DNA of 64,000 nt from a virus (IMGVR_UViG_3300032304_001060:1-64000); one strand, 5' to 3'. Shown: positions 16,863 through 37,748, numbered from the stretch's first letter. Notes: generated by a model not told the origin, from the sequence alone. Made by a program: numbers and translations.

Positions 16863-17069
16863 TTATATCGGCTTCCAGTTTTTATTCACGATGAACTTAT
16901 CGTTTGAACTCTTTGAGTTAACAGACTCGCCTTGTACACCACGTCCACGCTGAGGCCATGAAACTATTGACGGCTCTGCTTTACCTTTTGGAGTGAAGTC
17001 AGGTACGTAATTAAAGTGCTGCTTAATACCACGACGCTGATTAACCATAAGTGGTTTGCGCTGCATCAT
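16863..17069 (-). CDS. Hypothetical protein
   Basis: 68 aa ORF, ATGA-coupled. Confidence 0.45.
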   Translation of the reverse strand: MMQRKPLMVNQRRGIKQHFNYVPDFTPKGKAEPSIVSWPQRGRGVQGESVNSKSSNDKFIVNKNWKPI

Positions 17070-17443
17070 GTGCCAAGACCGCCAATGTAACCAGCAGCAG
17101 TTCCGCCAGATCCTGTACCGTTCTTTGAAGAGGCAGGCTTTGTTCCCTTTTTCTTTTGTGAAGGGTCTACAGCGTAAGGATTTGGATTTAATGGGTTTGC
17201 AGACATTGCACCGACTGCAGATGGGTAACCAAATGTGTATCCGTTACCAACAAACCCAGATTCACGCTTACGCTTAAACCGACGGCGCTGTTGATCTTCA
17301 AGGTTAGTTCTTGTAGAGAATTGAGCAGAGAGTGGAGAAGTTGTTGGTCCAGTTAAATACTTACCGTATGTACCTTTAGGACTTCCGAATAGACCGTCAC
17401 CGATCGGCATAGTTAAAAACCTTTTCTGGATCGTAAACTGCAA
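17066..17443 (-). CDS. Hypothetical G/K-rich protein (probable start 17410)
   Basis: ORF track. Contains PLSAQF. Confidence 0.5.
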   Translation of the reverse strand: MQFTIQKRFLTMPIGDGLFGSPKGTYGKYLTGPTTSPLSAQFSTRTNLEDQQRRRFKRKRESGFVGNGYTFGYPSAVGAMSANPLNPNPYAVDPSQKKKGTKPASSKNGTGSGGTAAGYIGGLGT

Positions 17444-17603
17444 TAGACTTTTGAATCAATGTGTACCCAAGTTCCCGTGCATGATGTCCACAGAAGTACA
17501 ACTGACCAGTTAGCAGAGTTGCACGAATGGCTGCTCGTGCAGAGCACTTGTCACAACGATCTTCTGCTGTAAGTTCCTCTTCTGTTTTAATGATGGTAGT
17601 CAT
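17397..17603 (-). CDS. Small Zn-binding protein (CDKC...FCGHH)
   Basis: LTAEDRCDKC...LYFCGHHA resembles a small family common in Actinobacteria. Confidence 0.65.
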   Translation of the reverse strand: MTTIIKTEEELTAEDRCDKCSARAAIRATLLTGQLYFCGHHARELGYTLIQKSIAVYDPEKVFNYADR

Positions 17604-17743
17604 TATTTCCCTTCACTTGACGCTGGTCCTTGATCCCCACCAAGTGGTGAAGGACCTTCAAACTGTCGAGTTAACGGCATTGCACCCGAACTGGTCACAC
17701 TAGCACCAGGATTGAACTGCTGCTTAGAAAGATTCCCGTTCAT
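17603..17743 (-). CDS. 46 aa peptide with NLSKQQF motif
   Basis: Manual translation MNGNLSKQQFNPGASVTSSGAMPLTRQFEGPSPLGGDQGPASSEGK. The stop overlaps the next ATG. Confidence 0.55.
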   Translation of the reverse strand: MNGNLSKQQFNPGASVTSSGAMPLTRQFEGPSPLGGDQGPASSEGK

Positions 17744-17901
17744 GTGCTTATTTTGCCCTCTTTATCTCTTCGTGTACGGACATAATAGGCGGATGGACGA
17801 TGCTGCAAGAATTGCCCGTTATACTTGCAACTTCTGTAAAAAACGATACGTTGTACCTGATTTAGCACGAATGTGCGAGGACAAGCACTTGGAGGATTAA
17901 A

Positions 17902-18078
17902 ATGCCTAAATATGAATACGCATGCACTACCTGCGACTTAGATTACGAAAAAGAGCGTAGCATTCACGATTCAGAACCAGAATACTTCTGTGAATCATGC
18001 GGCTACGCTCTTCAACGTGTCTACAACTCTTTTGGCCTCCAATTTAAAGGTGGAGGTTTCTACTCTAGTAGAAGTTAG
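17902..18078 (+). CDS. FmdB-family zinc ribbon protein
   Basis: MPKYEYACTTC...CESCG...FKGGGFYS, with GGAGG RBS. Confidence 0.8.
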   Translation: MPKYEYACTTCDLDYEKERSIHDSEPEYFCESCGYALQRVYNSFGLQFKGGGFYSSRS

Positions 18079-18413
18079 TTATAGTTTGGATCGTCTTCTT
18101 TAGCGCTAGTTGCTGACTTTGTTTCAGCATCTTTTGCTTGACGCTTCTCAACTTCTACATCAGCAACTGTCTTTGCGCCCTTATCGACTGAAGAAAACGC
18201 CGCATTGATTTCATCAAGCGTAAGTTTTCCATCATCCATAAATGCACGAGCCAATTTTTCAACAACAGCGGCAACTGCAGTAAGACCTGCAACTAACATA
18301 GCCTTACCGACCGAGATACCAGCAACTGCACCAGCACCGATAACACCGAGACCGCTTGCTGCAAAGACTGCAACAATACGCATCAATACATTCTTCAGAC
18401 TTGCCATGAACAT
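18075..18413 (-). CDS. Membrane protein (2 TM plus DDGKLTLDE loop), holin-like
   Basis: Hydrophobic N-terminal half and an EF-hand-like loop. Confidence 0.55.
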   Translation of the reverse strand: MFMASLKNVLMRIVAVFAASGLGVIGAGAVAGISVGKAMLVAGLTAVAAVVEKLARAFMDDGKLTLDEINAAFSSVDKGAKTVADVEVEKRQAKDAETKSATSAKEDDPNYN

Positions 18414-18454
18414 ATACCTGTTCTCTTTTCCCCCTCAGGATGTAAGTCTTATTA

Positions 18455-18718
18455 TCAGTCTTGCTGGATACCAATACGTTCTAAATAGGCTTCTTTTTCG
18501 GTCATGAGGTAGTCCTCAATACGCTTTTTTTGAATAGCAACCTGTTCTTCAGTTGCTGTGATTTGTTCTGTTGTCATTTCGTGGTTTAAGTCCTTAAATG
18601 TCTCAACGGCTAGGTCGAGGTCGGTATTTGCCAAGGCAGCCTTTAACTGCGCTTGTTGCCAAAGAAACTCGGCATGATCAATTTTTCTCTGTAAACGCTT
18701 ATCTTGTGTGTTAGACAT
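18455..18718 (-). CDS. Hypothetical coiled-coil protein
   Basis: 87 aa with a TAGGGT-N6-ATG leaderless-type start. Confidence 0.6.
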   Translation of the reverse strand: MSNTQDKRLQRKIDHAEFLWQQAQLKAALANTDLDLAVETFKDLNHEMTTEQITATEEQVAIQKKRIEDYLMTEKEAYLERIGIQQD

Positions 18719-18835
18719 ATGTCTACCCTATCAGAAAGTTAATGAAGCAGTTTTTGCGCCCTCATGCTTAGGAGGTTCTTATTCAATTGTGTGACTAATC
18801 TAACTATAAATTAACGTGATTTACATTACAAAGGG

Positions 18836-19384
18836 TTACTTATATTGCTCTTTGACCAAAAATGGGGCAGATGTGTTGGCATCTAGTTGTGCAGCGATCT
18901 CTAGGGCCTTGAGAGGCTTCGCGCCCGCGTGAAGGGCGCCGATAGCGTAACTAGAGCCAGATCCGACCCCGTAGATGCCGTCATCGCTCATACAGATAGA
19001 GCAGTCGTCTGCAACGTCAAATACCTCGCCACCGATAGCAATGAGAAAGTTAAATCGAGAATCATTGACTTTTCCGTCGCCTTTGCCTTCATTAAAGTCA
19101 TATCCGTTATCTGTCAAACACTGTCTAAGATGTGGCATGACTTTGGTAATCATAAAGTGATAAATATCTTGACGATCTTTGAGAGTTGGCTTTGGTGGCT
19201 GCCAAATGTGTTGAGCAATATCACAAGGTCCGATTTCACCAGAACCTGCAATGAGGTACTCACCACGCTCTGTAATCTTCTCCATACGTGGATGATGGTA
19301 GATGCGACCGTTATCACCTGTAACTTGGTTATCGGCAGCAAAAACTACTTTGTCCGTGTATTGGACTGCCACGATCGTTGTCAT
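18836..19384 (-). CDS. HslV/proteasome-beta-like Ntn threonine peptidase
   Basis: Starts M-TTIVAV (Thr1 nucleophile). Motifs AADNQVT, KI, IAGSG, GSGSSYA and DANT. Confidence 0.8.
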   Translation of the reverse strand: MTTIVAVQYTDKVVFAADNQVTGDNGRIYHHPRMEKITERGEYLIAGSGEIGPCDIAQHIWQPPKPTLKDRQDIYHFMITKVMPHLRQCLTDNGYDFNEGKGDGKVNDSRFNFLIAIGGEVFDVADDCSICMSDDGIYGVGSGSSYAIGALHAGAKPLKALEIAAQLDANTSAPFLVKEQYK

Positions 19385-19461
19385 ATCCACCCCTTCAATA
19401 AAGAACCCCCCAAGGATACCATCTGGCATCCATGGAGGGTCTTAAGGTCGGAAATGTCCGA

Positions 19462-20205
19462 TTAGAGGAATTTGATCAATTCTGCCCAAGTCTTAGGGCC
19501 GACGATGCCGTTTGAGTCCACAATGTCGTGATTATCCTGAAATGCGATGACTGCCTTCTTTGTGTGAGGGCCGTAGTCGCCGTCAGCCAAGAGGCCGAGA
19601 GCCCTCTGAACGACCTTGACGCCCTCACCCTTAGCGCCAGGCTTGATCTGGCCTGGGAATGCTGGAGTCTCTGGTGCTGGGATCTTGGCGGTGACTTCGT
19701 TGCCCTTGTAGTTAGGGCGACCCCAACCGACGATAGAGACCAGAACCTTCTTCTTGTTGGCCTTGTACGCACGTGTCTGTGCACATACCTCGCCGCCATT
19801 GCGCTGGCTGCCCTTCTTCTTGCCTGAAGTGTTACCTTCGATAGTCAAGACGACCCCATCTGAGTCGATACCTGTGCAGATACCTACGTGCGAAATTCTA
19901 TCGACGCCGTCTCCTGGGAAATCAAAATACAGGATATCGCCTGGCTGTGGTGATTGACCGCAATCTGCCTCAAACCATGTTCCCATCTTCTTAAATGCTG
20001 CAGCACCTGCCACAGTAGAGACTGTATTAGGGATCTTTACACCTGCTTGATGAGCACACCAGTTAACAAAACTTCCACACCATGCAAGGTAGTTAGCCTT
20101 TGTAAAGGCGCCGTACTTGGTCTCGTTATCCTTTGGACCTTCGATTGTGCCAACCTCTTTTGTTGCAACTTCAATGATTGCTGCTGCTGTTCCTTTTTCT
20201 GCCAT
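19462..20205 (-). CDS. Endolysin (CHAP amidase plus PG-binding domain)
   Basis: AWCGSFV, SHVGI and TIEGNT motifs. C-terminal DGDYGPHTKKAV..FQ...GIVGPKTW. Confidence 0.9.
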   Translation of the reverse strand: MAEKGTAAAIIEVATKEVGTIEGPKDNETKYGAFTKANYLAWCGSFVNWCAHQAGVKIPNTVSTVAGAAAFKKMGTWFEADCGQSPQPGDILYFDFPGDGVDRISHVGICTGIDSDGVVLTIEGNTSGKKKGSQRNGGEVCAQTRAYKANKKKVLVSIVGWGRPNYKGNEVTAKIPAPETPAFPGQIKPGAKGEGVKVVQRALGLLADGDYGPHTKKAVIAFQDNHDIVDSNGIVGPKTWAELIKFL

Positions 20206-20207
20206 GG

Positions 20208-20471
20208 TTATCTACCTTTCCTTGGTATGAAGTGATGATGCTCGTCATCGTTCTTAAATTCGCCGTTAGCATGAGCCTCGTCGTGTAACTTGTCCCACGC
20301 CGCATGATCATGCTGTGAAGGACCAACTATAACGCCATTGGCATTTATTGGCGCACCTTTATGCATACTAAACATGTGTGATCTAATGGACCACCCAACT
20401 TGTTTTGGAACCCAGCGCTTCTTCTTTGGAGGCTGTGCTTCCGACATATTCTCTTCTGTGTTAGCAGCCAT
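20208..20471 (-). CDS. Hypothetical His-rich protein
   Basis: 87 aa ORF. Confidence 0.5.
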   Translation of the reverse strand: MAANTEENMSEAQPPKKKRWVPKQVGWSIRSHMFSMHKGAPINANGVIVGPSQHDHAAWDKLHDEAHANGEFKNDDEHHHFIPRKGR

Positions 20472-20474
20472 TGT

Positions 20475-20867
20475 TTACCGTCCTCGCCCTCTATCTGCCT
20501 GCTTTTGAATTCCGCGGTTCTTTTCAACATTGCGCTGCTTGGCACCAATCGCTGTCTTTCGTGCAAGGCCGACTAATTGGTGGAATTGAGAATTGTTAGA
20601 GGTGATAAGCCCTGCAATGTGGGCCAAGTTCTCATTGTTGGTAGAGACACCCATGTGGGTCAATCCAGCCAAGAACATGTTGGTGCCGATCTTCTTAGGG
20701 TGGTTACCTAACTCTGCTGCAATCGCTGCACGGTGGTCGCCTGGTGTCTTTGGCAAGCCTTCGCCTGTGCGAGCAGGTGTGTTTACACCAGCAGCAGCGG
20801 GTGTAAGGAAGCCCTGAAACTGAGCACCAGACACTAGCGTGGTGTGTGGCTTTGGGTTGCTGGTCAT
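20475..20867 (-). CDS. Hypothetical protein (LVSGAQF motif)
   Basis: ATG 20867 is coupled to the previous stop. Confidence 0.55.
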   Translation of the reverse strand: MTSNPKPHTTLVSGAQFQGFLTPAAAGVNTPARTGEGLPKTPGDHRAAIAAELGNHPKKIGTNMFLAGLTHMGVSTNNENLAHIAGLITSNNSQFHQLVGLARKTAIGAKQRNVEKNRGIQKQADRGRGR

Positions 20868-21274
20868 GTGGTATCCCTCTTCGGCTTTCTCCACTCATCA
20901 TGTACTACAGGAACTAACATATTAGGATCTATATCTGCGGCAGCGGCTACACGGTGATGGCCTTCGCTGAGTTGATATCCTGCAGGCCAATGCTTACCCC
21001 CATCAAAATTACGACTTAATTCTACTGGCTTTCTGACACCTTCTCGTTTGATCGAGTCATAGAGAGATGCGCCCTTGCGTGCGCGGGTAGGAAGATATCT
21101 AGCATTTCTAATGGCGCCAGTCTTTGCCTCATATAACTTCTGATGCCAGAGGCTCTCCATATTGTCGCCACCTGGGTCTGCAGAGTAGTTGACCATGGAC
21201 TTGATCTCCCCTGCCTTCATGAACATGGGTAACTGTTCCCATTGCTGAGAAGAGAGATTATTTTCGGCGCTCAT
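20864..21274 (-). CDS. ParB/Srx-like protein with MSAENNLSSQQW leader
   Basis: SLYDSIKREGVRKPV...EGHHRVAAA. Confidence 0.7.
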   Translation of the reverse strand: MSAENNLSSQQWEQLPMFMKAGEIKSMVNYSADPGGDNMESLWHQKLYEAKTGAIRNARYLPTRARKGASLYDSIKREGVRKPVELSRNFDGGKHWPAGYQLSEGHHRVAAAADIDPNMLVPVVHDEWRKPKRDTT

Positions 21275-21708
21275 TTTCTAAACTTCACTCTCTCTGGAAG
21301 TTTCTCTCCAGTTGACTTGGCCCATGCATCACCTTGGTCACTTCTATCTCCTGAGTGAACTGGTGCTGGTACACCTGTTTTTGCTGCAATATCCTTAGCG
21401 GCTTTTAACATCGCTGTTGCCGCTTTCTTTCTTCTGGCTCCTGGAATAACATGGACGTCTAATATCTCGCCCGTGTTAGAGTTCCAGTGAAGATGACCTA
21501 GAGTAGTAGAAGGTTTATCTGCATCTGGTGCTTGAGATTCCAAGGTTACTCCAGCGGTATGGAGACCAAAGTTAGTTGCAGCATTTCCAAATGGCTTATC
21601 ACCTGTGGGAACTTCATATCGGATATGTGGAGCAAACTGCTTAAGGTTTAAGTTTGTATGTGGGGCTGGTTGCCATCCGTGTCCCCATTCGGAGTGGAAC
21701 TCGCTCAC
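21271..21708 (-). CDS. GNAT acetyltransferase-like protein
   Basis: ILDVHVIPGARRKKAATAML is motif A-like. Paralog of 27079..27450. Confidence 0.65.
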   Translation of the reverse strand: MSEFHSEWGHGWQPAPHTNLNLKQFAPHIRYEVPTGDKPFGNAATNFGLHTAGVTLESQAPDADKPSTTLGHLHWNSNTGEILDVHVIPGARRKKAATAMLKAAKDIAAKTGVPAPVHSGDRSDQGDAWAKSTGEKLPERVKFRK

Positions 21709-21787
21709 TTACTTCTCCTCGCAGATACATTTGCACGTATCTTCTGTGCAGACTCCATATTCGATCTTGTGATCGCACTTGATACAG

Positions 21788-22165
21788 TTAAGCATTGTGC
21801 ATGTGCTCATGTCCGAAGTCGGTGTAGTTCTCACGCTCATCTGCAGGACCTGCATCCATATTTGCGTGGTCTTCATCGTGATATGCCTTAAGAGTTGCGT
21901 GATCCATCTCATGCACATCAAGTGGGTGAGCATAGTGACCAGAAGAAAGCATGTGTGCTTTCAGTGCGGCATGATCACGCACATCGGTCGGTGCAGTACG
22001 CATGTGTGCGTCTACCTGTGCGTGGAGGCGGCCTGCCTGACTAAATGCTTCCATCGCATCAATGTCAGAACGGTCTAAGTGGATATGACTGTCTGCTGGC
22101 TTGTCGCAGCCTAGTTCAGGACAGACACGCGCTTTACCTTGCTGGAACTCTTCACCTCTGCTCAT
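21788..22165 (-). CDS. Hypothetical His-rich protein
   Basis: MSRGEEFQQG..., with a CACAAT-N6-ATG start. Confidence 0.55.
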   Translation of the reverse strand: MSRGEEFQQGKARVCPELGCDKPADSHIHLDRSDIDAMEAFSQAGRLHAQVDAHMRTAPTDVRDHAALKAHMLSSGHYAHPLDVHEMDHATLKAYHDEDHANMDAGPADERENYTDFGHEHMHNA

Positions 22166-22181
22166 ACCTGTATTGTGACAG

Positions 22182-22304
22182 TTAGGCTTTGGTTCCACTC
22201 GCTGTATTCGTAGCAGTTGATTTTGGCCCCATCTGCATGGCGACATTGACGTACATGTCTTTAGGCATTACTTGGGCGCCTAGAAATTGCTGCTGAGAGA
22301 TCAT
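22182..22304 (-). CDS. 40 aa peptide with ISQQQF motif
   Basis: Manual translation MISQQQFLGAQVMPKDMYVNVAMQMGPKSTATNTASGTKA. ATGA-coupled. Confidence 0.45.
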   Translation of the reverse strand: MISQQQFLGAQVMPKDMYVNVAMQMGPKSTATNTASGTKA

Positions 22305-22663
22305 TGCTTGGGCCTCTTTACTGAGGCTGTAATTTGATTCTGCTTATAGCGAGGGATATTCGACCAAGTCTTTTCCCAGTTTGCTTTCATTTCCTGTACC
22401 CGTGGATCAGCACTAGCGTCTTTCCATCGGTGGAAGTCTGGAGAGATAGGAGCAATAAGACCGATCTGGTCACCTTTGTAGTGTGGATCAAGTGAGTTCT
22501 CTCTAGGAACAAAGCCCCACTTAAATGATTTGCCGTAATGCTCATCCCAACTTGGTGCAGGCGCAGAGCCAGGCTTCATAAGGCTAGGTGTTACACGAGG
22601 GTCCATAGTGCGTGGTTTGTAGTTAACAAACTGCTGATCGGAGATGTTTTCTGGAGATGTCAT
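22301..22663 (-). CDS. Hypothetical protein with MTSPENISDQQF leader
   Basis: 120 aa, ATGA-coupled. Confidence 0.6.
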   Translation of the reverse strand: MTSPENISDQQFVNYKPRTMDPRVTPSLMKPGSAPAPSWDEHYGKSFKWGFVPRENSLDPHYKGDQIGLIAPISPDFHRWKDASADPRVQEMKANWEKTWSNIPRYKQNQITASVKRPKQ

Positions 22664-22803
22664 TTGTCAAACTGCTCCAAACTCAAATTGGCGTTCTTCA
22701 TCACGTCTTTTACTTGCGCCTCAACTTTAGAGCCATCCCATGCTGCCATAGGGTTCTTTGAGGAAGGAGACTTCAAACTATCTGGTTTCTCTAGTGGGTT
22801 CAC
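22660..22803 (-). CDS. 47 aa peptide ending NANLSLEQFDK
   Basis: GTG start overlaps the upstream TGA and the stop overlaps the next ATG. Confidence 0.5.
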   Translation of the reverse strand: MNPLEKPDSLKSPSSKNPMAAWDGSKVEAQVKDVMKNANLSLEQFDK

Positions 22804-23012
22804 TTTTTTCTCCAAACCTTCACTTTAGCATCTGGCTTGTAATGAGTAACTCCTGGCGCTTTTGAACCACGAAGTCTGTGTGCTGCCACGAGGTCCTCAC
22901 CAATCATCTTCACAGCATGTACACGCACTTTCCTAGTGCTATCTAGATAATCACCAGGCTGCATGTCTCTTGCGGCAATGTGTGCTGCCTCAAATTCTGA
23001 AGCCCTACTCAT
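22800..23012 (-). CDS. Hypothetical SH3-like small protein
   Basis: ARDMQPGDYL motif, 70 aa. Confidence 0.55.
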   Translation of the reverse strand: MSRASEFEAAHIAARDMQPGDYLDSTRKVRVHAVKMIGEDLVAAHRLRGSKAPGVTHYKPDAKVKVWRKK

Positions 23013-23034
23013 GCTGGAATCTCTCTTAGTGGAG

Positions 23035-23397
23035 TCATTCGTCGCTCATCTTTTCTCCATAAGTGACGTAACGCTTTACGCCCTTTACTTTAAACCCTTT
23101 ATCAGAGGTCACAGAGTTTTTAGTCCACCATGACGCATCGGTAAGAGTTTTATCTCCCTTTAGAGGCGCTACCTCGTATACAGGAGAGACCATGGATAGT
23201 TGATGCCATCCCTTTTTATTATCTCGTCCTCTATACCCTGTGTACATACGATCGATGACGTGGTCTGCTGCACGGTCTGCATTAGTTCCTGCCCATACAA
23301 CACGATCATTACCTGGGAGGATTATTGTTCCAGGCTTCATCGTCTCTGCGGTTGAGCCGTGGAATAACTGTTGTGAGAGATTATCTTGAGCACTCAT
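23035..23397 (-). CDS. ADP-ribosyltransferase-fold protein (Arr-like) with MSAQDNLSQQLF leader
   Basis: LFHGS..MKPGTII...VWAGTN...VYEVAP resembles the Arr/H-type ART pattern. Confidence 0.5.
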   Translation of the reverse strand: MSAQDNLSQQLFHGSTAETMKPGTIILPGNDRVVWAGTNADRAADHVIDRMYTGYRGRDNKKGWHQLSMVSPVYEVAPLKGDKTLTDASWWTKNSVTSDKGFKVKGVKRYVTYGEKMSDE

Positions 23398-23828
23398 GCT
23401 GGCATTACCCTTGGAGGATTAAAGGTGCGGTTGCGGGCACGCAACTTGACTTGCGTTAATCCTTGCTCATCTTTATATTTTTTAGCAGTTTTACGAAATT
23501 GTCGGTCTACCAATACCGCAGCGCCTGGACGAACTGTTACTTCTTTTTCATTAGACCCAGGCCAAATTGCATTTTCCTTAACTGCTTTACGGCCTTCTTT
23601 TGTCTTTGGGTCAATAATTGCAGCAGGATGTACTTTTCCAACAAGCACAACGCTTTTAGTTACGTCTCCAGGAAGTCTAGGAATACTTAACTCAGAAAAG
23701 TTAGAAGCAACACTTGATTTAGATGACCAGTGCATACCAAGAGGTTTTTTAACTTCATGAGTGCCCCCTAATCCACGGTATACAGGGACAGTAAATAAAG
23801 ATGCAGATAAGTTATCTTGGGCGCTCAT
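23394..23828 (-). CDS. Putative R-S-E ADP-ribosyltransferase
   Basis: VYRGL...GMHWSS..SVASNF...NEKEVTV. Confidence 0.6.
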   Translation of the reverse strand: MSAQDNLSASLFTVPVYRGLGGTHEVKKPLGMHWSSKSSVASNFSELSIPRLPGDVTKSVVLVGKVHPAAIIDPKTKEGRKAVKENAIWPGSNEKEVTVRPGAAVLVDRQFRKTAKKYKDEQGLTQVKLRARNRTFNPPRVMPA

Positions 23829-24211
23829 GCTGGCATCTCTCGTGGTGGGTTGTATGTGCGCTTACGAGATTTTACATCGCCAAAATTGCGTAGTGTTGTT
23901 CTTCCTGTAACGAGAACTGGTTTACCAAAGCGAACAGGGACTTCTTGCTCATGCTCGTACTCTCCGCCTACTTCTTTTCGCTTAAGAGTACTTGTCCTAG
24001 TCTCTACAGAACTCATAGGAACATTTGCGTGATAGATAACTCGTGTAGATCCAGATTCGCCACCTTTTCGTGCAAATCCCTCTGCTACATCAGGGGATGC
24101 GCTCCAGTGAGTCCCTGCGTGCTTTGACTCTAACTTTTCTCCAGGCTTAATATACAGACCTCTATGCACCTGAAAGAATAACTCATTAGACAAGTTGTCT
24201 TCTGCGCTCAT
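23825..24211 (-). CDS. Putative R-S-E ADP-ribosyltransferase
   Basis: VHRGL...GTHWSASPDVAEGFA...HEQEVPV. Confidence 0.6.
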   Translation of the reverse strand: MSAEDNLSNELFFQVHRGLYIKPGEKLESKHAGTHWSASPDVAEGFARKGGESGSTRVIYHANVPMSSVETRTSTLKRKEVGGEYEHEQEVPVRFGKPVLVTGRTTLRNFGDVKSRKRTYNPPREMPA

Positions 24212-24618
24212 GCCTTCATCTCCCTTGGCGGATTATATGTGCGCTTGCGCGTCCTTCTCTCGCCTCGCTCACCATCTGGTAGCAGTGATGGGGGTTTCAG
24301 GCTTGTTTTACCTGTTACCAGCACAGTTGCTCCTTCTTTTACTGGAATTTCTTTTTCGTTTAGTGGATCTTGCCCCATAAAACCAGCAAAACCTCTTTGA
24401 CCAAGTACTTTTGTATTGGTCTCGACAGATGAGATAGGAATCTTGGCGTGAATAATAGTTGCGTGTGTTAAATGAAATTTTGCAGCAAATTTTTTAGCAA
24501 CATTCTCAGATGCGCTGAAGTGCATGCCCACGCCGTAATTAGGATTAAGATTTTTTTCTTTGATGCCTCGATGTGCTTCAAAAAATAGTTCATGAGACAA
24601 GTTATCTTCTGCAGCCAT
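24208..24618 (-). CDS. Putative R-S-E ADP-ribosyltransferase
   Basis: AHRGI...GMHFSASENVAKKFA...NEKEIPV, starting MAAEDNLS. Confidence 0.6.
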   Translation of the reverse strand: MAAEDNLSHELFFEAHRGIKEKNLNPNYGVGMHFSASENVAKKFAAKFHLTHATIIHAKIPISSVETNTKVLGQRGFAGFMGQDPLNEKEIPVKEGATVLVTGKTSLKPPSLLPDGERGERRTRKRTYNPPREMKA

Positions 24619-25028
24619 TAGTCCCACTTCGATTCATCTAGTGCAACGCCCTTGCGTTCTGCCCAGTCATTATCTGAAGAGGGCTTACCAAATGCTTTGC
24701 CACGCTTAACATCTGACATATCAGCGTGAATGACAGGAACTAATTCATCAGGGCGATGCTTGAGCCCTGCGATAAGGCGATGATGGCCATCAACAAGTTC
24801 TGCCTTCCCACCTTCATCTTGTGATTGGTGAAATATGTGAAATGGCTTTTGAATAGGTTTTTCTTTAATTGCCTTATCAAGACCGCTAAGTTCGTTCTCG
24901 CGCTGTTTCACATCGGTCATCTGGCGCACTCCGCCGTAGTAATGTGAATCGCTCAGTTCGTGAGTTGACGCAATCTCTTTTGGCGTCATAAACATAGCCA
25001 GTTGTTGCGCTGAGACTGAGGATGACAT
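24618..25028 (-). CDS. ParB/Srx-like protein
   Basis: LDKAIKEKPIQKP...LVDGHHRL. Confidence 0.7.
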   Translation of the reverse strand: MSSSVSAQQLAMFMTPKEIASTHELSDSHYYGGVRQMTDVKQRENELSGLDKAIKEKPIQKPFHIFHQSQDEGGKAELVDGHHRLIAGLKHRPDELVPVIHADMSDVKRGKAFGKPSSDNDWAERKGVALDESKWD

Positions 25029-25483
25029 TAGTAGTCCTCCTTAAGAGCCTGACGAGCATCATGGATATTGTCGTGGTGAACCACTGGAAATAAATAATTA
25101 GGATGTTCTTCTGCTGCAACTGCAACTCTATGATGCCCACCTAGCATCTCTTTTGTTTCAAAATTTATTGGTATGCGTGGTGATTTAAATCCTTCGTGCG
25201 CTATATCTTGAGCCAAGTTACTATATTTTTCGCCGTGCTCTGCTCCACCCATGTCAGCATTAGTTACTGACTCATCATACTTTCGTTCCCATAACTCACT
25301 GTTAGTTTCTGGTCGAATCTTTTTGCCACCCCATTCTTCTGGGTCTGGCTCATCTGTGGCTCTTCCTTCACGATCACCAGGCCAAGGGCTGATGTGAGTT
25401 TGTATCTCTTTACCTGTCATGAACATAGGCAGTTGTCCTTTAGCCAAGTGTTCCCCTAAAGAGAAGTGCTTGCGTCTGCTCAT
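25028..25483 (-). CDS. ParB/Srx-like protein
   Basis: LAQDIAHEGF...LGGHHRVAVA, with the QLPMFMTG N-terminal motif. Confidence 0.65.
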   Translation of the reverse strand: MSRRKHFSLGEHLAKGQLPMFMTGKEIQTHISPWPGDREGRATDEPDPEEWGGKKIRPETNSELWERKYDESVTNADMGGAEHGEKYSNLAQDIAHEGFKSPRIPINFETKEMLGGHHRVAVAAEEHPNYLFPVVHHDNIHDARQALKEDY

Positions 25484-25544
25484 GCACACAGTGTGACAGA
25501 TTTTGCCGCGGTAGGGTTTTTAAAACCGACGAGGCGCTTTTTCC

Positions 25545-26039
25545 TTAGATGTCAAGAGACTGGTTGAACTCATAAAGCGGAATCCGCCATGAGCCCTCTG
25601 GTGCATACTTCCATTCATCCCGCTGACAGTCCTCCATACGCATCCAACCAAATATCTCAACTTCGGAGTAGTAGTCGCGGTCTAGCACTCGTGCGCCCAC
25701 CAGGAGCCATCCCTCTCGGATGTCCTTAGGAAATACAGGTATCTCATCTTTGGTGCGGATGGACTTGACTTCAATGTTCGTACCTACCTCAGCGATGTCT
25801 TTGCGGAAGTAGTGCTCTTCATTGGTGTAGAAGGGGAAGGTGAATGACTTCTTGTATAACTTAGCAACTGCGTACTCTGCAACGATAGTCCTTACATTGG
25901 CGGCAATTTCTGGTTCAAGTATTGCTTTGTTGGTGTAGTTAGGACGATCAACGCTGCCAAACTTAATCATCCATCGGTTGAGTGCGATATCTGCACATGC
26001 ACGTACTTCTTCTTTAGATAACTTGACGATGTGGCTCAT
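25545..26039 (-). CDS. Hypothetical protein, possible PD-(D/E)xK nuclease
   Basis: AEYAVAK...DI...IEVKS pattern. Confidence 0.5.
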   Translation of the reverse strand: MSHIVKLSKEEVRACADIALNRWMIKFGSVDRPNYTNKAILEPEIAANVRTIVAEYAVAKLYKKSFTFPFYTNEEHYFRKDIAEVGTNIEVKSIRTKDEIPVFPKDIREGWLLVGARVLDRDYYSEVEIFGWMRMEDCQRDEWKYAPEGSWRIPLYEFNQSLDI

Positions 26040-26567
26040 TCTTTATGCGCTCCATAGAGTAAGGGCCAATATAATCCAAAGAACAATTACAGAGGCGATG
26101 ATGTACTTCATTCGTTATTTTTGCACTTAGGGCACTGCTTTGTTGGATGTGCCGTTCCTTGAGGTACGGTGAATGTGCCGCCGCAATCAAAGCAGAGGAC
26201 GATGAGGTCACTCACTGTAGTTCTCTCTTAATCTTCTGCCCAGTCGCGGATGACATCGGCCAATTCAGCGATCTCGATGCTGTGCTCGTACCCACTGTCG
26301 TGGAGAAATTCTATAAATTCATCGGGTGCAACTAGTGTGCCGTTAATAATTGAGAATAGATCGCTCATACTGTGCTCCTTGCGATATCTGCACACCGTTC
26401 GCCTGCACGGATAATTGCATAGTCAATGTCATCGATAGGCGGATATGTTGCCTCTAGTTCGTCTTCAATTGCTTTTGCGATGCGCTCACGCAACTCCGTT
26501 AATTGTACTTCGACTGTCTTCTCCATTTTTTGCCCCTTCTTCTTCAGTAAAGGCTACTGCCTCAAAG

Positions 26568-26972
26568 TTATAGCGTCAAATCTTCTTCGTTAGGGGAGGT
26601 AACTACATTCTTATGGTAGTAATGACCGCCGTTATGTGTTCGCACTCGATGACAATTGGCACAGACGACGTCGCATTTATCTAATTCTTCTAGCATCTTG
26701 TCCCAACTGCCTCTCTCGGCTAATTTTGACGGTTGGAATTTCTTTTTATGTGGGTCGCGGTGGTCTAGATCGAGTACGTAGTACGGAAATTTGCCTCCGC
26801 AGTCCTTACAGCCGTGAAATTCCTTAAATTTATGCAAAAAATCACGTAATTGGCTCTTCTTTTCGCTATTTCGAGCAATATATGCGCTTTTATGGCGTCT
26901 GTAGTGCCTCTTTGAGTCTTCACGAGCCTTAATTCGGCCCTCTTCTGTGCCCTTATCTTTTCTTGGAGACAT
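26568..26972 (-). CDS. HNH-like endonuclease
   Basis: CKDCG...LDLDHR...KCDVVCANCHR. Confidence 0.75.
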   Translation of the reverse strand: MSPRKDKGTEEGRIKAREDSKRHYRRHKSAYIARNSEKKSQLRDFLHKFKEFHGCKDCGGKFPYYVLDLDHRDPHKKKFQPSKLAERGSWDKMLEELDKCDVVCANCHRVRTHNGGHYYHKNVVTSPNEEDLTL

Positions 26973-27078
26973 GTATGGAGCCTAACACATGTCGTTACTG
27001 AGAAAGTACTAGTGCTCGTTCGCCCAAAACATCACGAAGACAATAAATAAAAACATTAAGGTAAGAAACGCGGCCATT

Positions 27079-27450
27079 TTAGTCGAGGTGTCCTTTGTAT
27101 TCTTCAATATTCTTTTTAAGAGAAGGTACTCTACCACCTACCGACTTGGCCCATGCATCGCCTTCGGGGGTTCTGGTCTCAGAATGTTTTGGCGCGATGA
27201 TACTTTCCTTTGCAGATACCTCATGGGCATAGTTATAGAGGGCTGTAGCCACACCCTTACGGCGGTGCTCTGCCTTAACCTCTAGCGAGAGTATCTCACC
27301 GCTATGTGGATGCCAACTCATCTGCCCCATAAAGTCAGGTTGATTCTCAGGTGTACGCCCGATCATTGCTACAAAGTGGGCAGGATCGCCCTCTGGAGTG
27401 TGCCCATAAGCATAAGAGAGATTACCGAACTGTTTGCCCAGGTTGCTCAC
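27079..27450 (-). CDS. GNAT acetyltransferase with MSNLGKQF leader
   Basis: ILSLEVKAEHRRKGVATALY is motif A. Confidence 0.75.
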   Translation of the reverse strand: MSNLGKQFGNLSYAYGHTPEGDPAHFVAMIGRTPENQPDFMGQMSWHPHSGEILSLEVKAEHRRKGVATALYNYAHEVSAKESIIAPKHSETRTPEGDAWAKSVGGRVPSLKKNIEEYKGHLD

Positions 27451-27746
27451 TCAAAGTACTTTCCTAGAGAGGAGATGACAGATTTGGCTGAACGGCGTAG
27501 GTCGCCCGAATCTGATGACCAGTCGCTGCCGTGGGCGTAGTAGTGGGCGTCATCCAGGAGGCTTGAGGCCTGGTCATCGGTCATATTGACGTGGAGATGG
27601 TTGTTGTCACTTCCCTCGATATGGCTATGTGACAGCCCTGTCTCATCGCCCATGCGATCGATGTGGTCCATCAGGAAGTGATGGCCAGCATGACGTATCT
27701 TAAAGATGTCTCGTGGCTCATCAAATTGTTTTCCTAAGTTGCTCAT
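27447..27746 (-). CDS. Hypothetical protein with MSNLGKQF leader
   Basis: First 8 residues are identical to the adjacent GNAT, with an unrelated body. Confidence 0.6.
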   Translation of the reverse strand: MSNLGKQFDEPRDIFKIRHAGHHFLMDHIDRMGDETGLSHSHIEGSDNNHLHVNMTDDQASSLLDDAHYYAHGSDWSSDSGDLRRSAKSVISSLGKYFE

Positions 27747-27754
27747 CACAACTC

Positions 27755-28252
27755 CTACTTATACGTATCATCGTACTGCGCCTCAATCATTGAGCCGTAG
27801 TACTTCACTGGATGTAGGGCGTCTTTAAATTGCTCTGCTGACAATGCAACCCTATGGTGACCGCCGAGGATGTAGGACTGAACAGGGAATCCTTTGAGGT
27901 TGGTCTCAGGGCGTGGCTGTAGCGAGATTACTCCGTGAGTGCCGCCCTGCTTCTCCATGACCTTCTTGAGTGTAGAGCGGGGTGTCACCCCTAGTTTCTG
28001 GCCGTGCTTGGTCACACGGTCTATGCCCTTGAGTCGAGGACTACCGACGCCGTAGCGGGCGCTATTTTCACCAGTCTCCTTGGACTCCCGCAATTTGACA
28101 TCCCAGGCCTGATCTTCTTCTAGGCCGTCTCGGTCTCCTGGGTACATGTGGAAATTGTCTTTGATCTCTTGACCCGTCATAAACATAGGCTGATATCCCT
28201 GAGTTAGGGCTTTGCCCAAATCCTTGGGAGGGGTCATGCGCTTCTTGGCCAT
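27755..28252 (-). CDS. ParB/Srx-like protein
   Basis: YQPMFMTGQEI...ILGGHHRVAL. Confidence 0.6.
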   Translation of the reverse strand: MAKKRMTPPKDLGKALTQGYQPMFMTGQEIKDNFHMYPGDRDGLEEDQAWDVKLRESKETGENSARYGVGSPRLKGIDRVTKHGQKLGVTPRSTLKKVMEKQGGTHGVISLQPRPETNLKGFPVQSYILGGHHRVALSAEQFKDALHPVKYYGSMIEAQYDDTYK

Positions 28253-28289
28253 GTGGCTATTGTGGCCCATTTTGGCTACTGCCTCAGCC

Positions 28290-29810
28290 TAAAAGTCGTC
28301 AACCGTGTCTCTCACCTGGCTGGTCCTGTGCGCGATCTCGCTTAATGGTGGGGGGTCAACTGATCATCTTGTCTTGTGTTAACAACATCACCTGACTATT
28401 AATCAGGTGACAATGTGTAAACACATGCGTTGTTATCAGGTGGTACAGGTTGCTCGGTGACAACTTCGGTGACGTGATCACTTCGGCTACTGCACTCGTG
28501 GTACACATGGCTGTGTTGGTAACACCAGACTGACAGCCATCTGCGCCAGATGTAATCAGGTCACATGTACACGTTGTTATATCGATTCCGACTGCCTATT
28601 GGCATCGTGGTGCATTCACCTGTCGGTAGATATAACAACGTGGCCACGTGTTATTTATTTATTTGTTGCTGTTGTTACGTTGTACAACGTTGTCGTACTC
28701 AATCAGCCACGTCGCGACGTTGGCTATCGATTGATCACTTAACAACTCTGATACTGGATACATATCTGCATCTCCTTTCCCTCTCACTTACTTACTCTTC
28801 CTTAGCGATTATTTTGTTAACTTTTATCTTGTGATCTCTCTCTCTAATACAGCGTTGATCTATTGATTGTTAGATCGTTACTGGAAAAAAATCCCTGCGC
28901 CGAATTCCCACGTGGTCATCTGGCCATCTGGCCATGTGATCATCTGGGGCTCATCTCGTGCGTGTGCGCCCACATCGACCCGTTCGACCCGTATTCCACC
29001 GACCACCACTCACGCTCAAATCACGCTCAGGTGGCTCACGCTCAATACCCCGTACAGGCCTCCTACGGCCTCTCTGAGCCCCGATACCCCCATTCTGACC
29101 CAATCACCCACGCCCAGACCCGATCGTGGCTCCCAGCCCTGCTCTGGAACCTCGGAATTCTCCGATCGCCACGCTATGACCAGCGTGTACGGGGTTGTCG
29201 TACAGGCATGGTTTAATTCTCCTATCGGCACTCGCGTGAACGATCGTTCTGAATTCAGAATCCCTTCGGGGCAATTCAATTCGATCTACTAGCAGAAGAG
29301 AAAAAAGCCAAAAGTACTTATTGCAAAAGCGGTGTACTCATTCGAATCATTATGAATCCCTAGGGAATTCGAATCAGGTGACGGAAAGCATTCACTTACT
29401 TAATTAAATAGAGACTAGATACTTGCGAGAGATCGTATTGGTCATTACTGGAATAAAGAATTCATTCTGTAAGGCGCAATAAATTCATCTAACAAATTGC
29501 AATATGCATGCACATGATGACGATCTACTTACTATCGAAACGATTATGAAAATAATTGTGAATAGCAAGGGGCTAGTGAAGATTGCGGAGATTGTTAATA
29601 GGTTGATCATGGATTGCCATACAAGGTGCAGTCGGTAATCAATCCGCACGACAGAACAATGAAATTAATCTATTAACAATTAGCAAATCTACTTATGTGT
29701 TTTCTGTGATCACCAACTACTAAATAGACAGCGATCTATCTGCGGTTGGTGATCGCGGTGAATACATATCCTGTATTCAAATTCACCTAGACAATGAAAT
29801 GAGAAAACAA
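28290..29810. other. Large non-coding region between divergent gene blocks (candidate origin, terminus or early control region)
   Basis: Strand switch, no credible ORFs, many palindromes and an AT-rich stretch at about 29290-29700. Confidence 0.6.
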
Positions 29811-29811
29811 A

Positions 29812-30882: not shown

Positions 30883-31764
30883 ATGACCACAGATACAAAA
30901 TCTCTCTTCGTACCAACACTCGCATCAACATCTCACTACATACCTCGCACATTCGCTGGCCACGTCGGCGAATTTGAAACATTCGATTACGCACTTGAAA
31001 ACAATCTCAATGTGCTCATCGAAGGCGAGACTGGAACTGGTAAGACTTCTGGCGTTATGGCGTACTGCGCCCAACGTCATCTCAACTTCTTTGCTGTTCC
31101 TTGCAACAGCGCAATTGATTTCACTCAGGTGATCGGCGGTCTATTCCCGAATGCTGATGGCAAATTGGAATGGGTTGACGGCGGTATCACTCGCATCGTT
31201 CGTGAGGGCGGTGTCTTGTTGATTAACGAATTAAACAATGCGCCGAAGAATCTCTCTCAGTACCTCATGTCATTACTTGATGATCGTCGCTCGATCACTC
31301 TCATGGGTCATGGCAACGAGGTTGTGACTGCACACAAGGACTTGCTGATCGTTGCAGATCAGAATCCAAATTATCGTGGCACTCAACTTCTCAATGAGGC
31401 ATGGAAAGATCGCTTCGAGATTAAATTGCGTTACAACTACGACAACGCGATTGAGAAGAAGATCGTTACATCGTCAGCACTTCTGGAACTTGCGAATGGA
31501 ATTCGTTCTACATCGCGCCAGAATGAATACGCATCAGATCGCGGAACGATCTTCGAGACCCCAGTATCGCCTCGTCTACTTAAGACGTTCGAGAAAATCG
31601 CTCGTGATCTTTCATACGACTTTGCAGTCGATAACTTCGTCAACAACTTTACCGATGAAGAACGCCCTGCGGTGAAGATGCTCATCGAAGGTGCTTCATA
31701 CAACATCAAGGAAGAACTCGGTCTTGCTGTTGATTCAATCACCACCGAACACGCCAACGCGTAA
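30883..31764 (+). CDS. MoxR/CbbQ-like AAA+ ATPase
   Basis: GETGTGKT, LEWVDG, LLINELN, NPNYRGT..LNEAWKDRF and SPR. Confidence 0.85.
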   Translation: MTTDTKSLFVPTLASTSHYIPRTFAGHVGEFETFDYALENNLNVLIEGETGTGKTSGVMAYCAQRHLNFFAVPCNSAIDFTQVIGGLFPNADGKLEWVDGGITRIVREGGVLLINELNNAPKNLSQYLMSLLDDRRSITLMGHGNEVVTAHKDLLIVADQNPNYRGTQLLNEAWKDRFEIKLRYNYDNAIEKKIVTSSALLELANGIRSTSRQNEYASDRGTIFETPVSPRLLKTFEKIARDLSYDFAVDNFVNNFTDEERPAVKMLIEGASYNIKEELGLAVDSITTEHANA

Positions 31765-31773
31765 GGAGATTAC

Positions 31774-33672
31774 ATGTCATCAATCAAACTCTATGAAGAT
31801 TTCCTTTTAGGAGATCAATCAGAGGCTAAGGAACAACGTCGTATCGCAGATGAAAAGCGACAGAGACTTGAACGATTCACTCAATTCTTTGGTCGTGTGA
31901 ATTCTGCATTCACATTCCGCAAAGTGACTGTCAAGGTTGAGGACTCACCTATCGGTGCACCAGCGTGGTCTGGTGCATCGGAGGTGACATTCAATTCTCG
32001 TTTACTTGATCTCGATAGTCCGCAATCAATTGCTGGCTTGAAAGGTCTTGATCTACACGAGATCAGTCACATTCTTTATACGCCACGTGAGGGCTCTGAG
32101 ATATTTGATTACGTCAAAGAGAACGATTATCTACAGGCATACAACTGCCTCGAAGATCAACGTATCGAGACACTCTTTACATCAAAGTATCCGTCAACGA
32201 TTGATTGGTTCACAGCCACGATCTTGATTCACTTCGTTGATAAGCCAGAGGCATTCAACGCTTCTTATCCGTTGCTACGCGGTCGTAGATACTTACCCGT
32301 TGAATTGCGTGCACGCTCTCGTAACGCATATATCAATCAATCTAATCTCGATGAAATCTGCGAGATCGTCGATGCCTATCGCTCTCTTATCTTTCCTACT
32401 GATACTGAACAAGGAAAAGATTTAATTGCGCGATTCCACAAACTATTGCCAAAGCAGGATTCACCTGCTGGCGAAGGACAGGGCACACAGACTGTCACAG
32501 TACGGATTCAAGACCCGTTCGGACATGGTGAGAGGCCACAGGAGGGTATTGAGTCATCGGTTGATTCACGCCCTGTATCGCCACTTAAGCAGAAGCAGGA
32601 TCGTGCACGTTCACAGGCCAACGATGGTGAAGATGATTCGGCTCTTGCTGATTCACTTCGCAACGATGATCTCGTGATCGATATTGATCTATCTGGTGCA
32701 GGTGACGATGGTGATGCTGATGCTGATGGTGATGGTGATGATTCTTTGGATTCTGATAATTCATCTGATGGTGATTCTGCTGGTGATTCTGCTGGTGACA
32801 TGACAATCATTCAAGATTTTCTCGATGATCTTTTGAATGACGAAAATGTTGCTAGTGAAATCAACAACATCATTCGACAAATTGGTGGAGCACCTTCTCT
32901 TTCTACCAATGATTCGAAAGAACCGAAGATCAAGGACTACATGTCGCTCAGTCCAGATGCAGATACATTTCATGCATCACTTTCTTTCGGTCGTGAATTA
33001 GAACGATTGAAAGCATCATTCGACCCTGCATGGGATAAGTACGAGTCACAGGGGCGTATCGATGCACATCGTTACCTTCGCGGTGATGATCTCGATACAG
33101 TCTTTGATCAATGGAATGAGGGTCGTGAAGATGCGACTGAAATTTCATGTGTGATCATGCTCGATACTTCTGGCTCGATGAATGGCACTAAAGCAACATC
33201 TGCATACAAAGCCATGTATGCAATTAAACGTGCACTCGACAAGATCAATGCAGAATGTACTGTGATCACATTTAACGATTCAGTACACACGCTTTATCGT
33301 GCATCAGATAAGGCTGGTAACACTCTTCGTCATGCTGGAACTGGTGGCGGTACAAACGCTGATGAGGCAATCAGGTATGCGACCAAAGTGTTGGCCGAGA
33401 CTGAGAAGCCTGTACGTGTTCTCTTCGCAATTACCGATGGGGATTGGTACGGCGATCAGACTCTCAACGATGAAGCGATCAGTCGCTTGTCTCGTGCTGG
33501 TGTGCTTACAGCACTTGCCTACATTCCAGAAAAAAAATCGTCAGTAAATCTTGCTGACATCAATTCTCATCAATGCGAGATCAAAGCAGTCGTGCGTAAT
33601 CCAATTGACCTAATTGGAATGGCTCGATCAATTACTCGCTACGCGATCAATCGCAGATTGATCAACAACTAA
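31774..33672 (+). CDS. vWA (MIDAS) protein with N-terminal HExxH region, partner of the AAA+ ATPase
   Basis: LHEISH...NCLEDQRIE, an acidic linker, and MLDTSGSM, GGGT, ITDG. Confidence 0.85.
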   Translation: MSSIKLYEDFLLGDQSEAKEQRRIADEKRQRLERFTQFFGRVNSAFTFRKVTVKVEDSPIGAPAWSGASEVTFNSRLLDLDSPQSIAGLKGLDLHEISHILYTPREGSEIFDYVKENDYLQAYNCLEDQRIETLFTSKYPSTIDWFTATILIHFVDKPEAFNASYPLLRGRRYLPVELRARSRNAYINQSNLDEICEIVDAYRSLIFPTDTEQGKDLIARFHKLLPKQDSPAGEGQGTQTVTVRIQDPFGHGERPQEGIESSVDSRPVSPLKQKQDRARSQANDGEDDSALADSLRNDDLVIDIDLSGAGDDGDADADGDGDDSLDSDNSSDGDSAGDSAGDMTIIQDFLDDLLNDENVASEINNIIRQIGGAPSLSTNDSKEPKIKDYMSLSPDADTFHASLSFGRELERLKASFDPAWDKYESQGRIDAHRYLRGDDLDTVFDQWNEGREDATEISCVIMLDTSGSMNGTKATSAYKAMYAIKRALDKINAECTVITFNDSVHTLYRASDKAGNTLRHAGTGGGTNADEAIRYATKVLAETEKPVRVLFAITDGDWYGDQTLNDEAISRLSRAGVLTALAYIPEKKSSVNLADINSHQCEIKAVVRNPIDLIGMARSITRYAINRRLINN

Positions 33673-36552: not shown

Positions 36553-36823
36553 ATCAGAATTACTAGACGGCATGACACCGACGATCACAGGTGCGCCATG
36601 TCAATCAACAGAACCAGAGATATTCTTTCCAGACCCAACTGATTACGAAACGATCAAGGTTGCCAAAGAATTTTGTGCATCATGTAAGGCAGACGTTAAA
36701 AATAAATGTCTGTCATTCGCTCTCGAAAACAAGATTTGGTATGGAGTCTGGGGAGGACTTACAGAACGTGAACGCATGAACTTCCGCAGACAACAGATGA
36801 GAAGGGAATATCGGAATGACTGA
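36527..36823 (+). CDS. whiB: WhiB-family transcription factor
   Basis: C...PEIFFP...AKEFCASC...C...GVWGGLTERER. Confidence 0.9.
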   Translation: MEMMMTTARSELLDGMTPTITGAPCQSTEPEIFFPDPTDYETIKVAKEFCASCKADVKNKCLSFALENKIWYGVWGGLTERERMNFRRQQMRREYRND

Positions 36824-37731: not shown

Positions 37732-37748
37732 ATCATGAAGGAGGGCTC

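Follow-up and report, generated by a model that had tools for sequence, protein, structure and literature searches.

Encapsulin cargo peptides are short disordered terminal peptides that dock unrelated enzymes inside an HK97-fold shell and are not cut. In phage T4, the capsid-targeting sequence (CTS) is MKTYQEFIAE, L/I-x-E being the site cut by the gp21 prohead protease. The T-even phages have diverse internal proteins, and the CTS is the only part that these share (PMC3012670). Polyvalent proteins, found in phages and conjugative elements, form a domain network whose hubs are ADP-ribosyltransferases (ARTs), DdrB-type ParB domains and zincin peptidases, and which also contains RimI-like GNATs; they are argued to travel with the DNA; DdrB of phage P1 (a ParB domain with a peptidase) enters the head and Alt of T4 is a packaged ART, and no tag shared between them is described (PMC5512222). 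Finally, a leader common to ribosomal protein L27 and to capsid, scaffold and tail proteins of staphylococcal phages is cut by Prp between F and A (PMC5744158). Here, we analysed a 64,000-nucleotide stretch of virus DNA (IMGVR_UViG_3300032304_001060:1-64000, hereafter the window), in which many otherwise unrelated proteins, most of them encoded in an array of small genes (28270-20208, minus strand), begin with one short peptide of core N-L-S-x-x-Q-F, hereafter the tag. The window covers the opening 64 kb of a virus record of 94,728 bp, which IMG/VR classes as complete with direct terminal repeats; the G+C content of this phage genome is 46%.

A portable N-terminal peptide kept by selection

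A first-pass annotation of the window had listed examples of this motif and read it as a capsid-targeting or processing signal. Each of its examples was found on the minus strand, in its place or close to it. Most are N-terminal as proposed, but those at 21708 (NLNLKQF), 20867 (LVSGAQF) and 47731 (IMSAAQF) lie 10-45 residues inside their open reading frames (ORFs), and the one at 22803 is C-terminal. MSNLGKQF does occur twice, the copy at 27450 beginning with GTG. We added two members to the list, the variant MPIGDGLF of the protein 17066-17443 and the NLSRPQF of a DUF7178 protein (48280-49083).

Firstly, we showed that the motif is enriched over background. Using our own simple ORF calls and a regular expression (L/I/V/M, S/N/G, two free residues, Q-F/W; or L-G-x-Q-F; or L-S-x-x-L-F), we found the tag within the first nine start positions in 13 of 173 curated ORFs of this genome, for an expected count of 0.62 derived from its rate inside the same proteins (Poisson P ~2e-13); 2000 residue shuffles gave a mean of 0.37 tagged ORFs and a maximum of 3. 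When the paralogues at 23394-24618 are counted as one event, about nine independent carriers are left in this genome. A scan for the strict form [LIMV]S..QF gave 13 matches in the minus (coding) frames and two in the plus frames. Since the regular expression was composed after the examples were known, we made a separate, unbiased count of di- and tripeptides in 1426 ORFs from this genome and 38 related loci, fetched from IMG/VR with the tag-bearing ParB-like family as bait. Q-F was the most enriched dipeptide of residues 2-14 (83 versus 25.3 expected, P 1e-19) and N-L-S the most enriched N-terminal tripeptide (29 versus 3.9 expected). Anchored on the aromatic residue, 66 distinct tags give the consensus N(-6) L(-5) S/N(-4) x x Q(-1) F/W(0), with the aromatic at residues 6-15 and no conserved residue beyond it. 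The tag is 7-12 residues long, with the core N-L-[S/N/G]-x-x-Q-[F/W], often after M-S-A-[E/Q]-D. In both of our AlphaFold2 (AF2) models, the first 8-17 residues are of low confidence and have no secondary structure, and no linker separates the tag from the domain, whose first strand follows immediately.

Secondly, we established that conservation acts on the amino acids. Between copies of the tag, Leu is encoded by CTC, CTT, CTG, TTA or TTG and Ser by TCA, TCT, TCC or, once, AGC, while both Gln codons and both Phe codons are used; the DNA 5' of the tagged start codons also differs between copies. Because the codons differ synonymously, the tag is kept by selection on the peptide and not as junction DNA, and a by-product of conserved gene junctions, an origin that the first-pass annotation had itself named as a danger to its proposal, is rejected.

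Thirdly, the tag is present on more than 40 unrelated families within one phage lineage. Once the tag was removed, 82 non-identical carriers fell into 46 groups by BLAST (E < 1e-4), a criterion that splits remote homologues, and a few of these groups are chance matches. We also scanned all IMG/VR contigs blindly, with DNA for the first half of the motif only (M-S-A-[E/Q]-D-N-L-S); among the 42 ORFs recovered (34 contigs, 36 distinct proteins), the second half follows in 41, as x-x-Q-[F/W/L], x-Q-L-F, x-x-L-F or x-Q-F. A family of large tagged proteins found in relatives (429-765 residues, with an invariant H-E-x-G-H-x-x-D) starts with M-P-L-G-x-Q-F, of which L3, G4, Q6 and F7 are at least 90% conserved; its members are only 28-32% identical overall, and 39 of 41 clusters carry the tag. 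Within families, the tag has been both gained and lost. The ParB-like carrier has 45 database relatives, the closer of which mostly retain the tag, and two distant ones begin with a separate N-L-S-S-Q-F followed by a linker. The protein 17066-17443 has orthologues with full tags in L004, L009, L011 and L012, and the 70-residue product of 22800-23012, which here starts with a degenerate S-E-F, has the full 12-residue tag in L114 and L132. The 46-residue ORF 17603-17743 has orthologues in L001, L005 and L011, in which its second motif copy is kept as A-M-P-x-x-x-K-[F/Y]-[D/E]-G-P.

Tags were seen only in contigs of this capsid-protein lineage: the capsid gene is present in six of seven contigs estimated to be at least 90% complete, and no tag was seen in the seventh. 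This restriction fits a reader encoded by the phage, but also plain shared ancestry. Across phages of 41-62% G+C, the core of the tag is unchanged. Searches among cultured phages, for near matches and at the protein level, gave none to the region, nor to the ART, ParB-like and HExxH proteins, and a literature search for the motif strings returned nothing relevant.

Two further N-terminal motifs were noticed. A 179-residue core protein (49074-49613, minus strand), which BRock also encodes, has a variable N-terminus, and its orthologues in all clades show a recurring [S/T]-F-x-x-W or S-Q-N-W element that may be another short N-terminal motif. A different paralogous family of 240-285 residues, encoded within the arrays of related genomes (G019 80561-82952, G014 36440-38957 and G023 1973-2794), has its own start, M-[P/A]-R-Y-F-K, which looks like family descent rather than a portable tag.

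The carriers, their neighbourhood and the host

The bodies of the carriers had been described as ART-like, GNAT and ParB/Srx-like, and the Arr profile, the R-S-ExE model, Foldseek and Pfam agree with this description. The family profile of 23035-23397 aligns with 2HW2 (E 2.3e-4) across the H-G-T and Y-x-V-E-P motifs, by which this protein is placed in the Arr family as a predicted ART. It had been listed among unrelated proteins together with its three neighbours, which likewise start with M-S-A-x-D-N-L-S; it does belong to another BLAST family, but the other three (23394-24618) are tandem paralogues, with invariant R-G, H-W-S and E-x-E. The AF2 model of one of them, 23825-24211 (pLDDT 73.8), has ART toxin domains as its best Foldseek matches, the E-values being weak but the hits consistent. 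For the model of 20864-21274 (pLDDT 82.6), the top Foldseek matches are without exception to ParB, KorB, Noc or sulfiredoxin (probability up to 1.0, E 4e-3), and G-H-H-R is invariant in the family alignment; on this model, the protein and its three paralogues in the array are assigned to the ParB/Srx superfamily. The ParB-like examples of the motif held in part, as their Q-L/W end runs into a family-specific QLPMFM segment. Two array genes encode GNATs according to Pfam. The large family of relatives is probably a zincin peptidase, as judged from its invariant HExxH motif; Pfam assigned no family to the large tagged proteins. This family was not seen among the ORFs of this genome, no search dedicated to it having been made, and in relatives the tagged peptidase gene is located inside the lysis cassette.

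All carriers of this genome are single-domain genes (Table 1). Those other than the ARTs, ParB/Srx proteins and GNATs could be given no function, and several of them are short and disordered. In Arr-like proteins, the terminal L-F or Q-F stands 0-4 residues before H-G-[T/S]. In the R-S-ExE ARTs, the tag ends 3-6 residues before the catalytic R-G, and F12 already begins strand 1. We found no longer, fused relative of the R-S-ExE ARTs, which is weak evidence, and no MuF-fused form. The DUF7178 match of 48280-49083 lies just under the cut-off (Pfam E 6e-6), and its C-terminal motif may be a coincidence; a lone plus-strand ORF overlaps the end of this gene. The gene that follows 17603-17743, and whose start overlaps its stop, encodes a DUF7455 zinc ribbon (17397-17603, Pfam E 3e-18).

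Table 1. Tag carriers, related proteins and head genes of the window, numbered from its first nucleotide
Position	Strand	Feature	Evidence
27755-28270	-	Fourth ParB/Srx paralogue, first array gene, without canonical tag	Alignment
27447-27746	-	99-residue protein, no assigned function; MSNLGKQF at residues 1-8	ORF and motif scan
27079-27450	-	GNAT acetyltransferase, GTG start, MSNLGKQF tag	Pfam PF00583, E 2e-5
24618-25028 and 25028-25489	-	Two ParB/Srx paralogues; degenerate tag-like N-termini running into the family segment	Alignment
24208-24618	-	R-S-ExE ART paralogue (predicted), full 12-residue L-F-type tag	Motif and alignment
23825-24211	-	R-S-ExE ART paralogue (predicted), tag residues 1-8 disordered	AF2, Foldseek, motifs
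23394-23828	-	R-S-ExE ART paralogue (predicted), full tag	Motif and alignment
23035-23397	-	Arr-like (rifampin-ART-type) predicted ART; tag ends directly at H-G-S	Profile versus PDB 2HW2
22660-22815	-	51-residue ORF ending N-L-S-L-E-Q-F-D-K, the C-terminal motif copy	
22301-22663	-	120-residue protein, N-I-S-x-x-Q-F tag; no Pfam or PHROG match	
22182-22304	-	40-residue ORF, short I-S-x-x-Q-F tag; relative L006 keeps the ORF with a full tag	
21271-21708	-	Second GNAT, N-L-N-L-K-Q-F at residues 19-25	Pfam PF00583
20864-21274	-	Predicted ParB/Srx-fold protein (GHHR box); tag ends Q-W, then QLPMFM	Alignment, AF2, Foldseek
17603-17743	-	46-residue disordered ORF, two motif copies: N-terminal N-L-S-K-Q-Q-F and internal P-L-T-R-Q-F	
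17066-17443	-	Basic 125-residue protein, variant tag MPIGDGLF after an internal Met	
50223-50474	-	83-residue low-complexity protein of the second cluster, P-L-S-x-x-Q-F at residues 2-8	
49615-50223	-	202-residue protein, L-S-x-x-Q-F at residues 8-13, Ser encoded by AGC	
48280-49083	-	DUF7178 protein, N-L-S-R-P-Q-F 18 residues from the C-terminus, inside the Pfam domain	
46332-46616	-	94-residue basic proline-rich protein, N-L-S-x-x-Q-F at residues 2-8	
5569-6354	-	Scaffold	
4407-5543	-	Capsid protein	

From 28.3 kb down to 0.9 kb, nearly all genes lie on the minus strand. The small-gene array is followed by the endolysin, an HslV-family peptidase, a holin-like gene and further small genes, then by the large terminase, the portal, a scaffold-like gene, the capsid protein and the fibre. 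The array thus stands directly upstream of the lysis, packaging and head genes on the same strand, with no terminator-like site between; a promoter and terminator scan of the region was uninformative. The peptidase gene (18836-19429, minus strand) encodes an HslV/proteasome-type N-terminal nucleophile (Ntn) peptidase (phrog_1040, E 5e-28), in which a short propeptide precedes T-T-I-V; placed between the endolysin and the holin-like gene, it is kept in 13 of the 32 related contigs, with identities of 29-87%. A KTSC-domain protein (11720-12349, minus strand, Pfam E 6e-12) is encoded between the small genes and the terminase, as is a protein whose PASTA-like match is weak (12364-13059, minus strand). 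At the other end, about 1.5 kb without convincing genes (28271-29811) separates the array from the divergent arm, a gap seen in all relatives examined. The first large genes of this arm (30883-33672, plus strand) encode a MoxR/CobS-like AAA_5 ATPase of 293 residues and a CobT-like VWA protein of 632 residues; this pair is also present in the closest relatives and in the complete tag-bearing genome G009. The core proteins common to tag-bearing genomes include the scaffold, capsid and portal proteins, the products of 9183-9578, 3950-4321 and 49074-49613, and a SpoVS-like protein.

The host is most likely an actinobacterium, probably aquatic, because the major capsid protein shares 61% identity with its counterpart in the Streptomyces myovirus BRock and the relatives of BRock, a candidate WhiB-like regulator is encoded, relatives of the ParB-like carrier are present in a Lysinibacter metagenome-assembled genome (MAG) and in a Streptomyces genome, and one protein family has a member named as from the uncultured Caudovirales phage UFOVP45. 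The regulator (53475-53804) was proposed from a reading of the sequence and from a 44% tblastn match to BRock, whose annotation has a WhiB-like gene. In a Lysinibacter sp. MAG contig of 59% G+C (L077, 8830-10426), we noticed a 237-residue protein starting with M-L-S-Q-G-Q-F together with a tagged ParB-like gene, both shortly downstream of a large terminase gene and beside a metallophosphoesterase.

Head loading weighed against other roles

A disordered peptide carried by so many unrelated proteins leads us to infer one common partner, which recognises the tag and treats a changeable kit of enzymes as a single group. Tentatively, we take the loading of the tagged proteins into the phage head to be the best explanation. 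We rate it likeliest because the carriers are of the kinds found among effectors regarded as packaged, because the T4 CTS belongs to the only well-studied diverse phage set sharing just a short N-terminal peptide, and because the array is contiguous with the lysis and head genes. The partner would then be a component of the assembling head, for example the scaffold or the inner capsid surface. The tagged ARTs, ParB/Srx proteins, GNATs, HExxH peptidase and small disordered proteins would be enclosed in the procapsid, leave it with the DNA at the next infection and act on the host before phage genes are expressed, in parallel to the T4 CTS proteins but without proteolytic removal, and as separately encoded counterparts to the polyvalent proteins that other phages make as a single chain. 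A stronger form of head loading, in which acquiring N-L-S-x-x-Q-F would suffice as an uncleaved code for enclosure in the HK97-fold head and co-injection, so that in a lineage of actinobacterial myoviruses an exchangeable kit of dozens of solo enzymes would replace giant polyvalent proteins, strikes us as doubtful.

Several observations weigh against head loading. What stood of the capsid-targeting or processing signal first proposed is a portable peptide tag; the leader does not end in a T4-type L/I-x-E site, none being found after the tag, and the complete genome encodes no S78, S77 or ClpP prohead protease (the S77 search having no positive control). The scaffold, capsid, portal and other core head proteins have no tag-like N-terminus, and no MuF fusion was found. 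Prp (PF04327) was absent from four phage genomes and from the Lysinibacter MAG, with controls behaving as expected. The mechanistic link behind T4-type tags is therefore missing, for there is neither a cleavage motif nor a prohead protease or Prp. In addition, G002, a 100% complete relative, has almost no tags, and the first 100 kb of BRock, the one cultured relative examined, has no N-terminal tag, although the head genes are the same. In every genome examined, the array comes first after the divergent non-coding region, a place that immediate-early takeover genes usually occupy. Three tagged genes sit amid genes of replication and nucleotide metabolism (46-50 kb). In the ART model, the terminal F already forms part of strand 1, which would constrain docking. 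Lastly, packaging was shown by experiment in T4, whereas for the tagged set it is a prediction from the genes.

A search for the reader of the tag singled out no gene: over eight genomes, presence and absence of genes track the tags only for the ParB-like bait family itself. The HslV-like peptidase was rejected as an obligatory partner because two genomes that carry tags, G009 (complete) and G014 (89% complete), lack it. The AAA_5/VWA pair was rejected as well: no copy was found in G019 or G023, both complete and tag-bearing, and it is present in the tag-poor G002. Host mimicry was searched for in 401 actinobacterial genomes, as the tag after ATG, limited to ATGA starts and the N-[L/F]-[S/T] form. 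This gave 38 matches versus 7 for the reversed control, but those that recur come from a segment internal to EAL domains and from a helix of a phosphoribosyltransferase, and no host family starts with the tag. N-L-S-x-x-Q-F is a conserved internal segment of EAL (cyclic di-GMP phosphodiesterase) domains (L080-L083, L090, L091), to which the single match in the unpublished genome G076 also belongs, and it is a trap for searches of the motif in bacterial genomes.

Among the other readings, the one that survives best, although unlikely, is that the tag tethers early takeover or anti-defence enzymes to one host machine, such as RNA polymerase, the ribosome, the nucleoid or a protease adaptor, and so brings different activities to bear on one target. 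Such docking would account for the typical early-gene position of the array in all genomes examined and for the tag being a linear motif that is short, disordered and anchored by a hydrophobic residue; very small proteins consisting of hardly anything but the motif (17603-17743) would make suitable competitive binders, and an unchanged core at 41-62% G+C is what a conserved host partner predicts. However, the 401 host genomes offered no family starting with the tag, within the limited motif space scanned, and it is hard to see one target for nuclease- or NTPase-like enzymes, a protease, ARTs and GNATs alike. Nor does the tag follow the beta-clamp consensus Q-L-[S/D]-L-F, in which Q comes first and positions 4 and 5 are hydrophobic and aromatic, respectively: the 66 tags, chosen by and anchored on Q-[F/W], have Q at -1 (motif position 4 in most) and S, N or L at -4, and only the L-F subtype fits in part.

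We consider it improbable that the tag is a processing or degradation signal, at which a protease (HslV-like, HExxH or of the host) would trim the carriers or time their destruction. Its last residue is F, W or L, and a cut before such a residue would expose a bulky hydrophobic N-terminus, that is, an N-degron under the bacterial N-end rule; moreover, the HslV-family peptidase lies in the same operon and relatives add the tagged HExxH peptidase. A precedent exists in the leader of the staphylococcal phage 80alpha, cut by Prp between F and A (PMC5744158). However, the HslV-like gene is missing from the two tag-bearing genomes named above, the ORFs of this tag-rich genome, among which no dedicated search was made, showed no member of the HExxH family, and Prp was not found in the phages, in one host-like genome or in a Corynebacterium control. 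The residues following the tag are not conserved and show no enrichment of Ala after the F (66 tags), and a cut after F would take part of ART strand 1.

It is less probable still that the tag is a handle for a chaperone or for assembly, grasped by the MoxR-type AAA_5 ATPase with its VWA protein or mediating hetero-oligomerisation. Here and in the closest relatives, the pair heads the divergent arm beside the array, but its distribution does not follow the tags: besides the absences and the presence in nearly tag-free G002 already given, BRock shows a weak, borderline AAA_5 match. The metal ion-dependent adhesion site (MIDAS) would bind an acidic residue, whereas many short tags have none. Lastly, a tag without function of its own, left by cassette shuffling at start/stop junctions or by a preference in translation initiation, is already disfavoured and very improbable: many array genes do overlap by ATGA without an obvious ribosome-binding site and some close paralogues (23394-24618) have the tag by descent, but codons at conserved residues vary freely, both Ser codon classes included, upstream contexts differ, the tag persists at 28-30% protein identity and its two halves go together in nearly all blind matches.

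If the tag is an address for head loading, sequence alone would list the proteins injected by abundant freshwater actinophages, the tag would explain how solo domains of polyvalent proteins act at entry, and foreign proteins could be loaded into phage heads with a short peptide that needs no protease. If it serves docking to a host hub or timed removal, a whole set of ARTs, acetyltransferases, ParB-like enzymes and peptidases would depend on a single control point. In both cases, the motif is of practical use as a marker for fast-evolving conflict genes in an uncultured phage lineage.

The tag beside known systems

The Prp leader resembles the tag in being an N-terminal leader (about 13 residues) with an aromatic end, shared by non-homologous phage proteins. 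It differs in that Prp is a cysteine protease of Firmicutes hosts and its leader sits on structural proteins, whereas here neither Prp nor the F-A site was found and the carriers are enzymes.

With polyvalent proteins (Iyer et al. 2017, PMC5512222), the tagged sets of this phage and its relatives share the domains ART, ParB/Srx, RimI-like GNAT and zincin-type peptidase, the last judged from the invariant HExxH motif; the first-pass annotation had noted the first three as typical cargo of such proteins. The location near late genes may match as well: the array lies beside lysis and head genes, but also comes first after the divergent regulatory region. Polyvalent proteins differ by uniting their domains in one chain, often linked to MuF or portal, while here they are separate genes under a common tag, and no fused multi-effector polypeptide was found.

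The T4 CTS is closer in layout. On IPI, IPII, IPIII and Alt, it is likewise an N-terminal peptide of about 10 residues and the sole common part of diverse, fast-changing small proteins and an ART, just as one short N-terminal peptide here heads otherwise unrelated proteins of one phage. Both systems occur in myovirus-type phages, and in both the carriers are of counter-defence or host-modifying types. The T4 leader ends in a protease site matched by an encoded protease, which the present one does not; in turn, the tag belongs to phages of an actinobacterial host, and its more than 40 carrier families across the lineage far exceed those of T4. Encapsulin peptides are usually C-terminal, have another sequence and serve a cellular compartment rather than a virion. 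An uncleaved code for loading the head, should the tag be one, would give encapsulin cargo loading a counterpart in phages, and the principle of the T4 CTS would have been invented twice independently.

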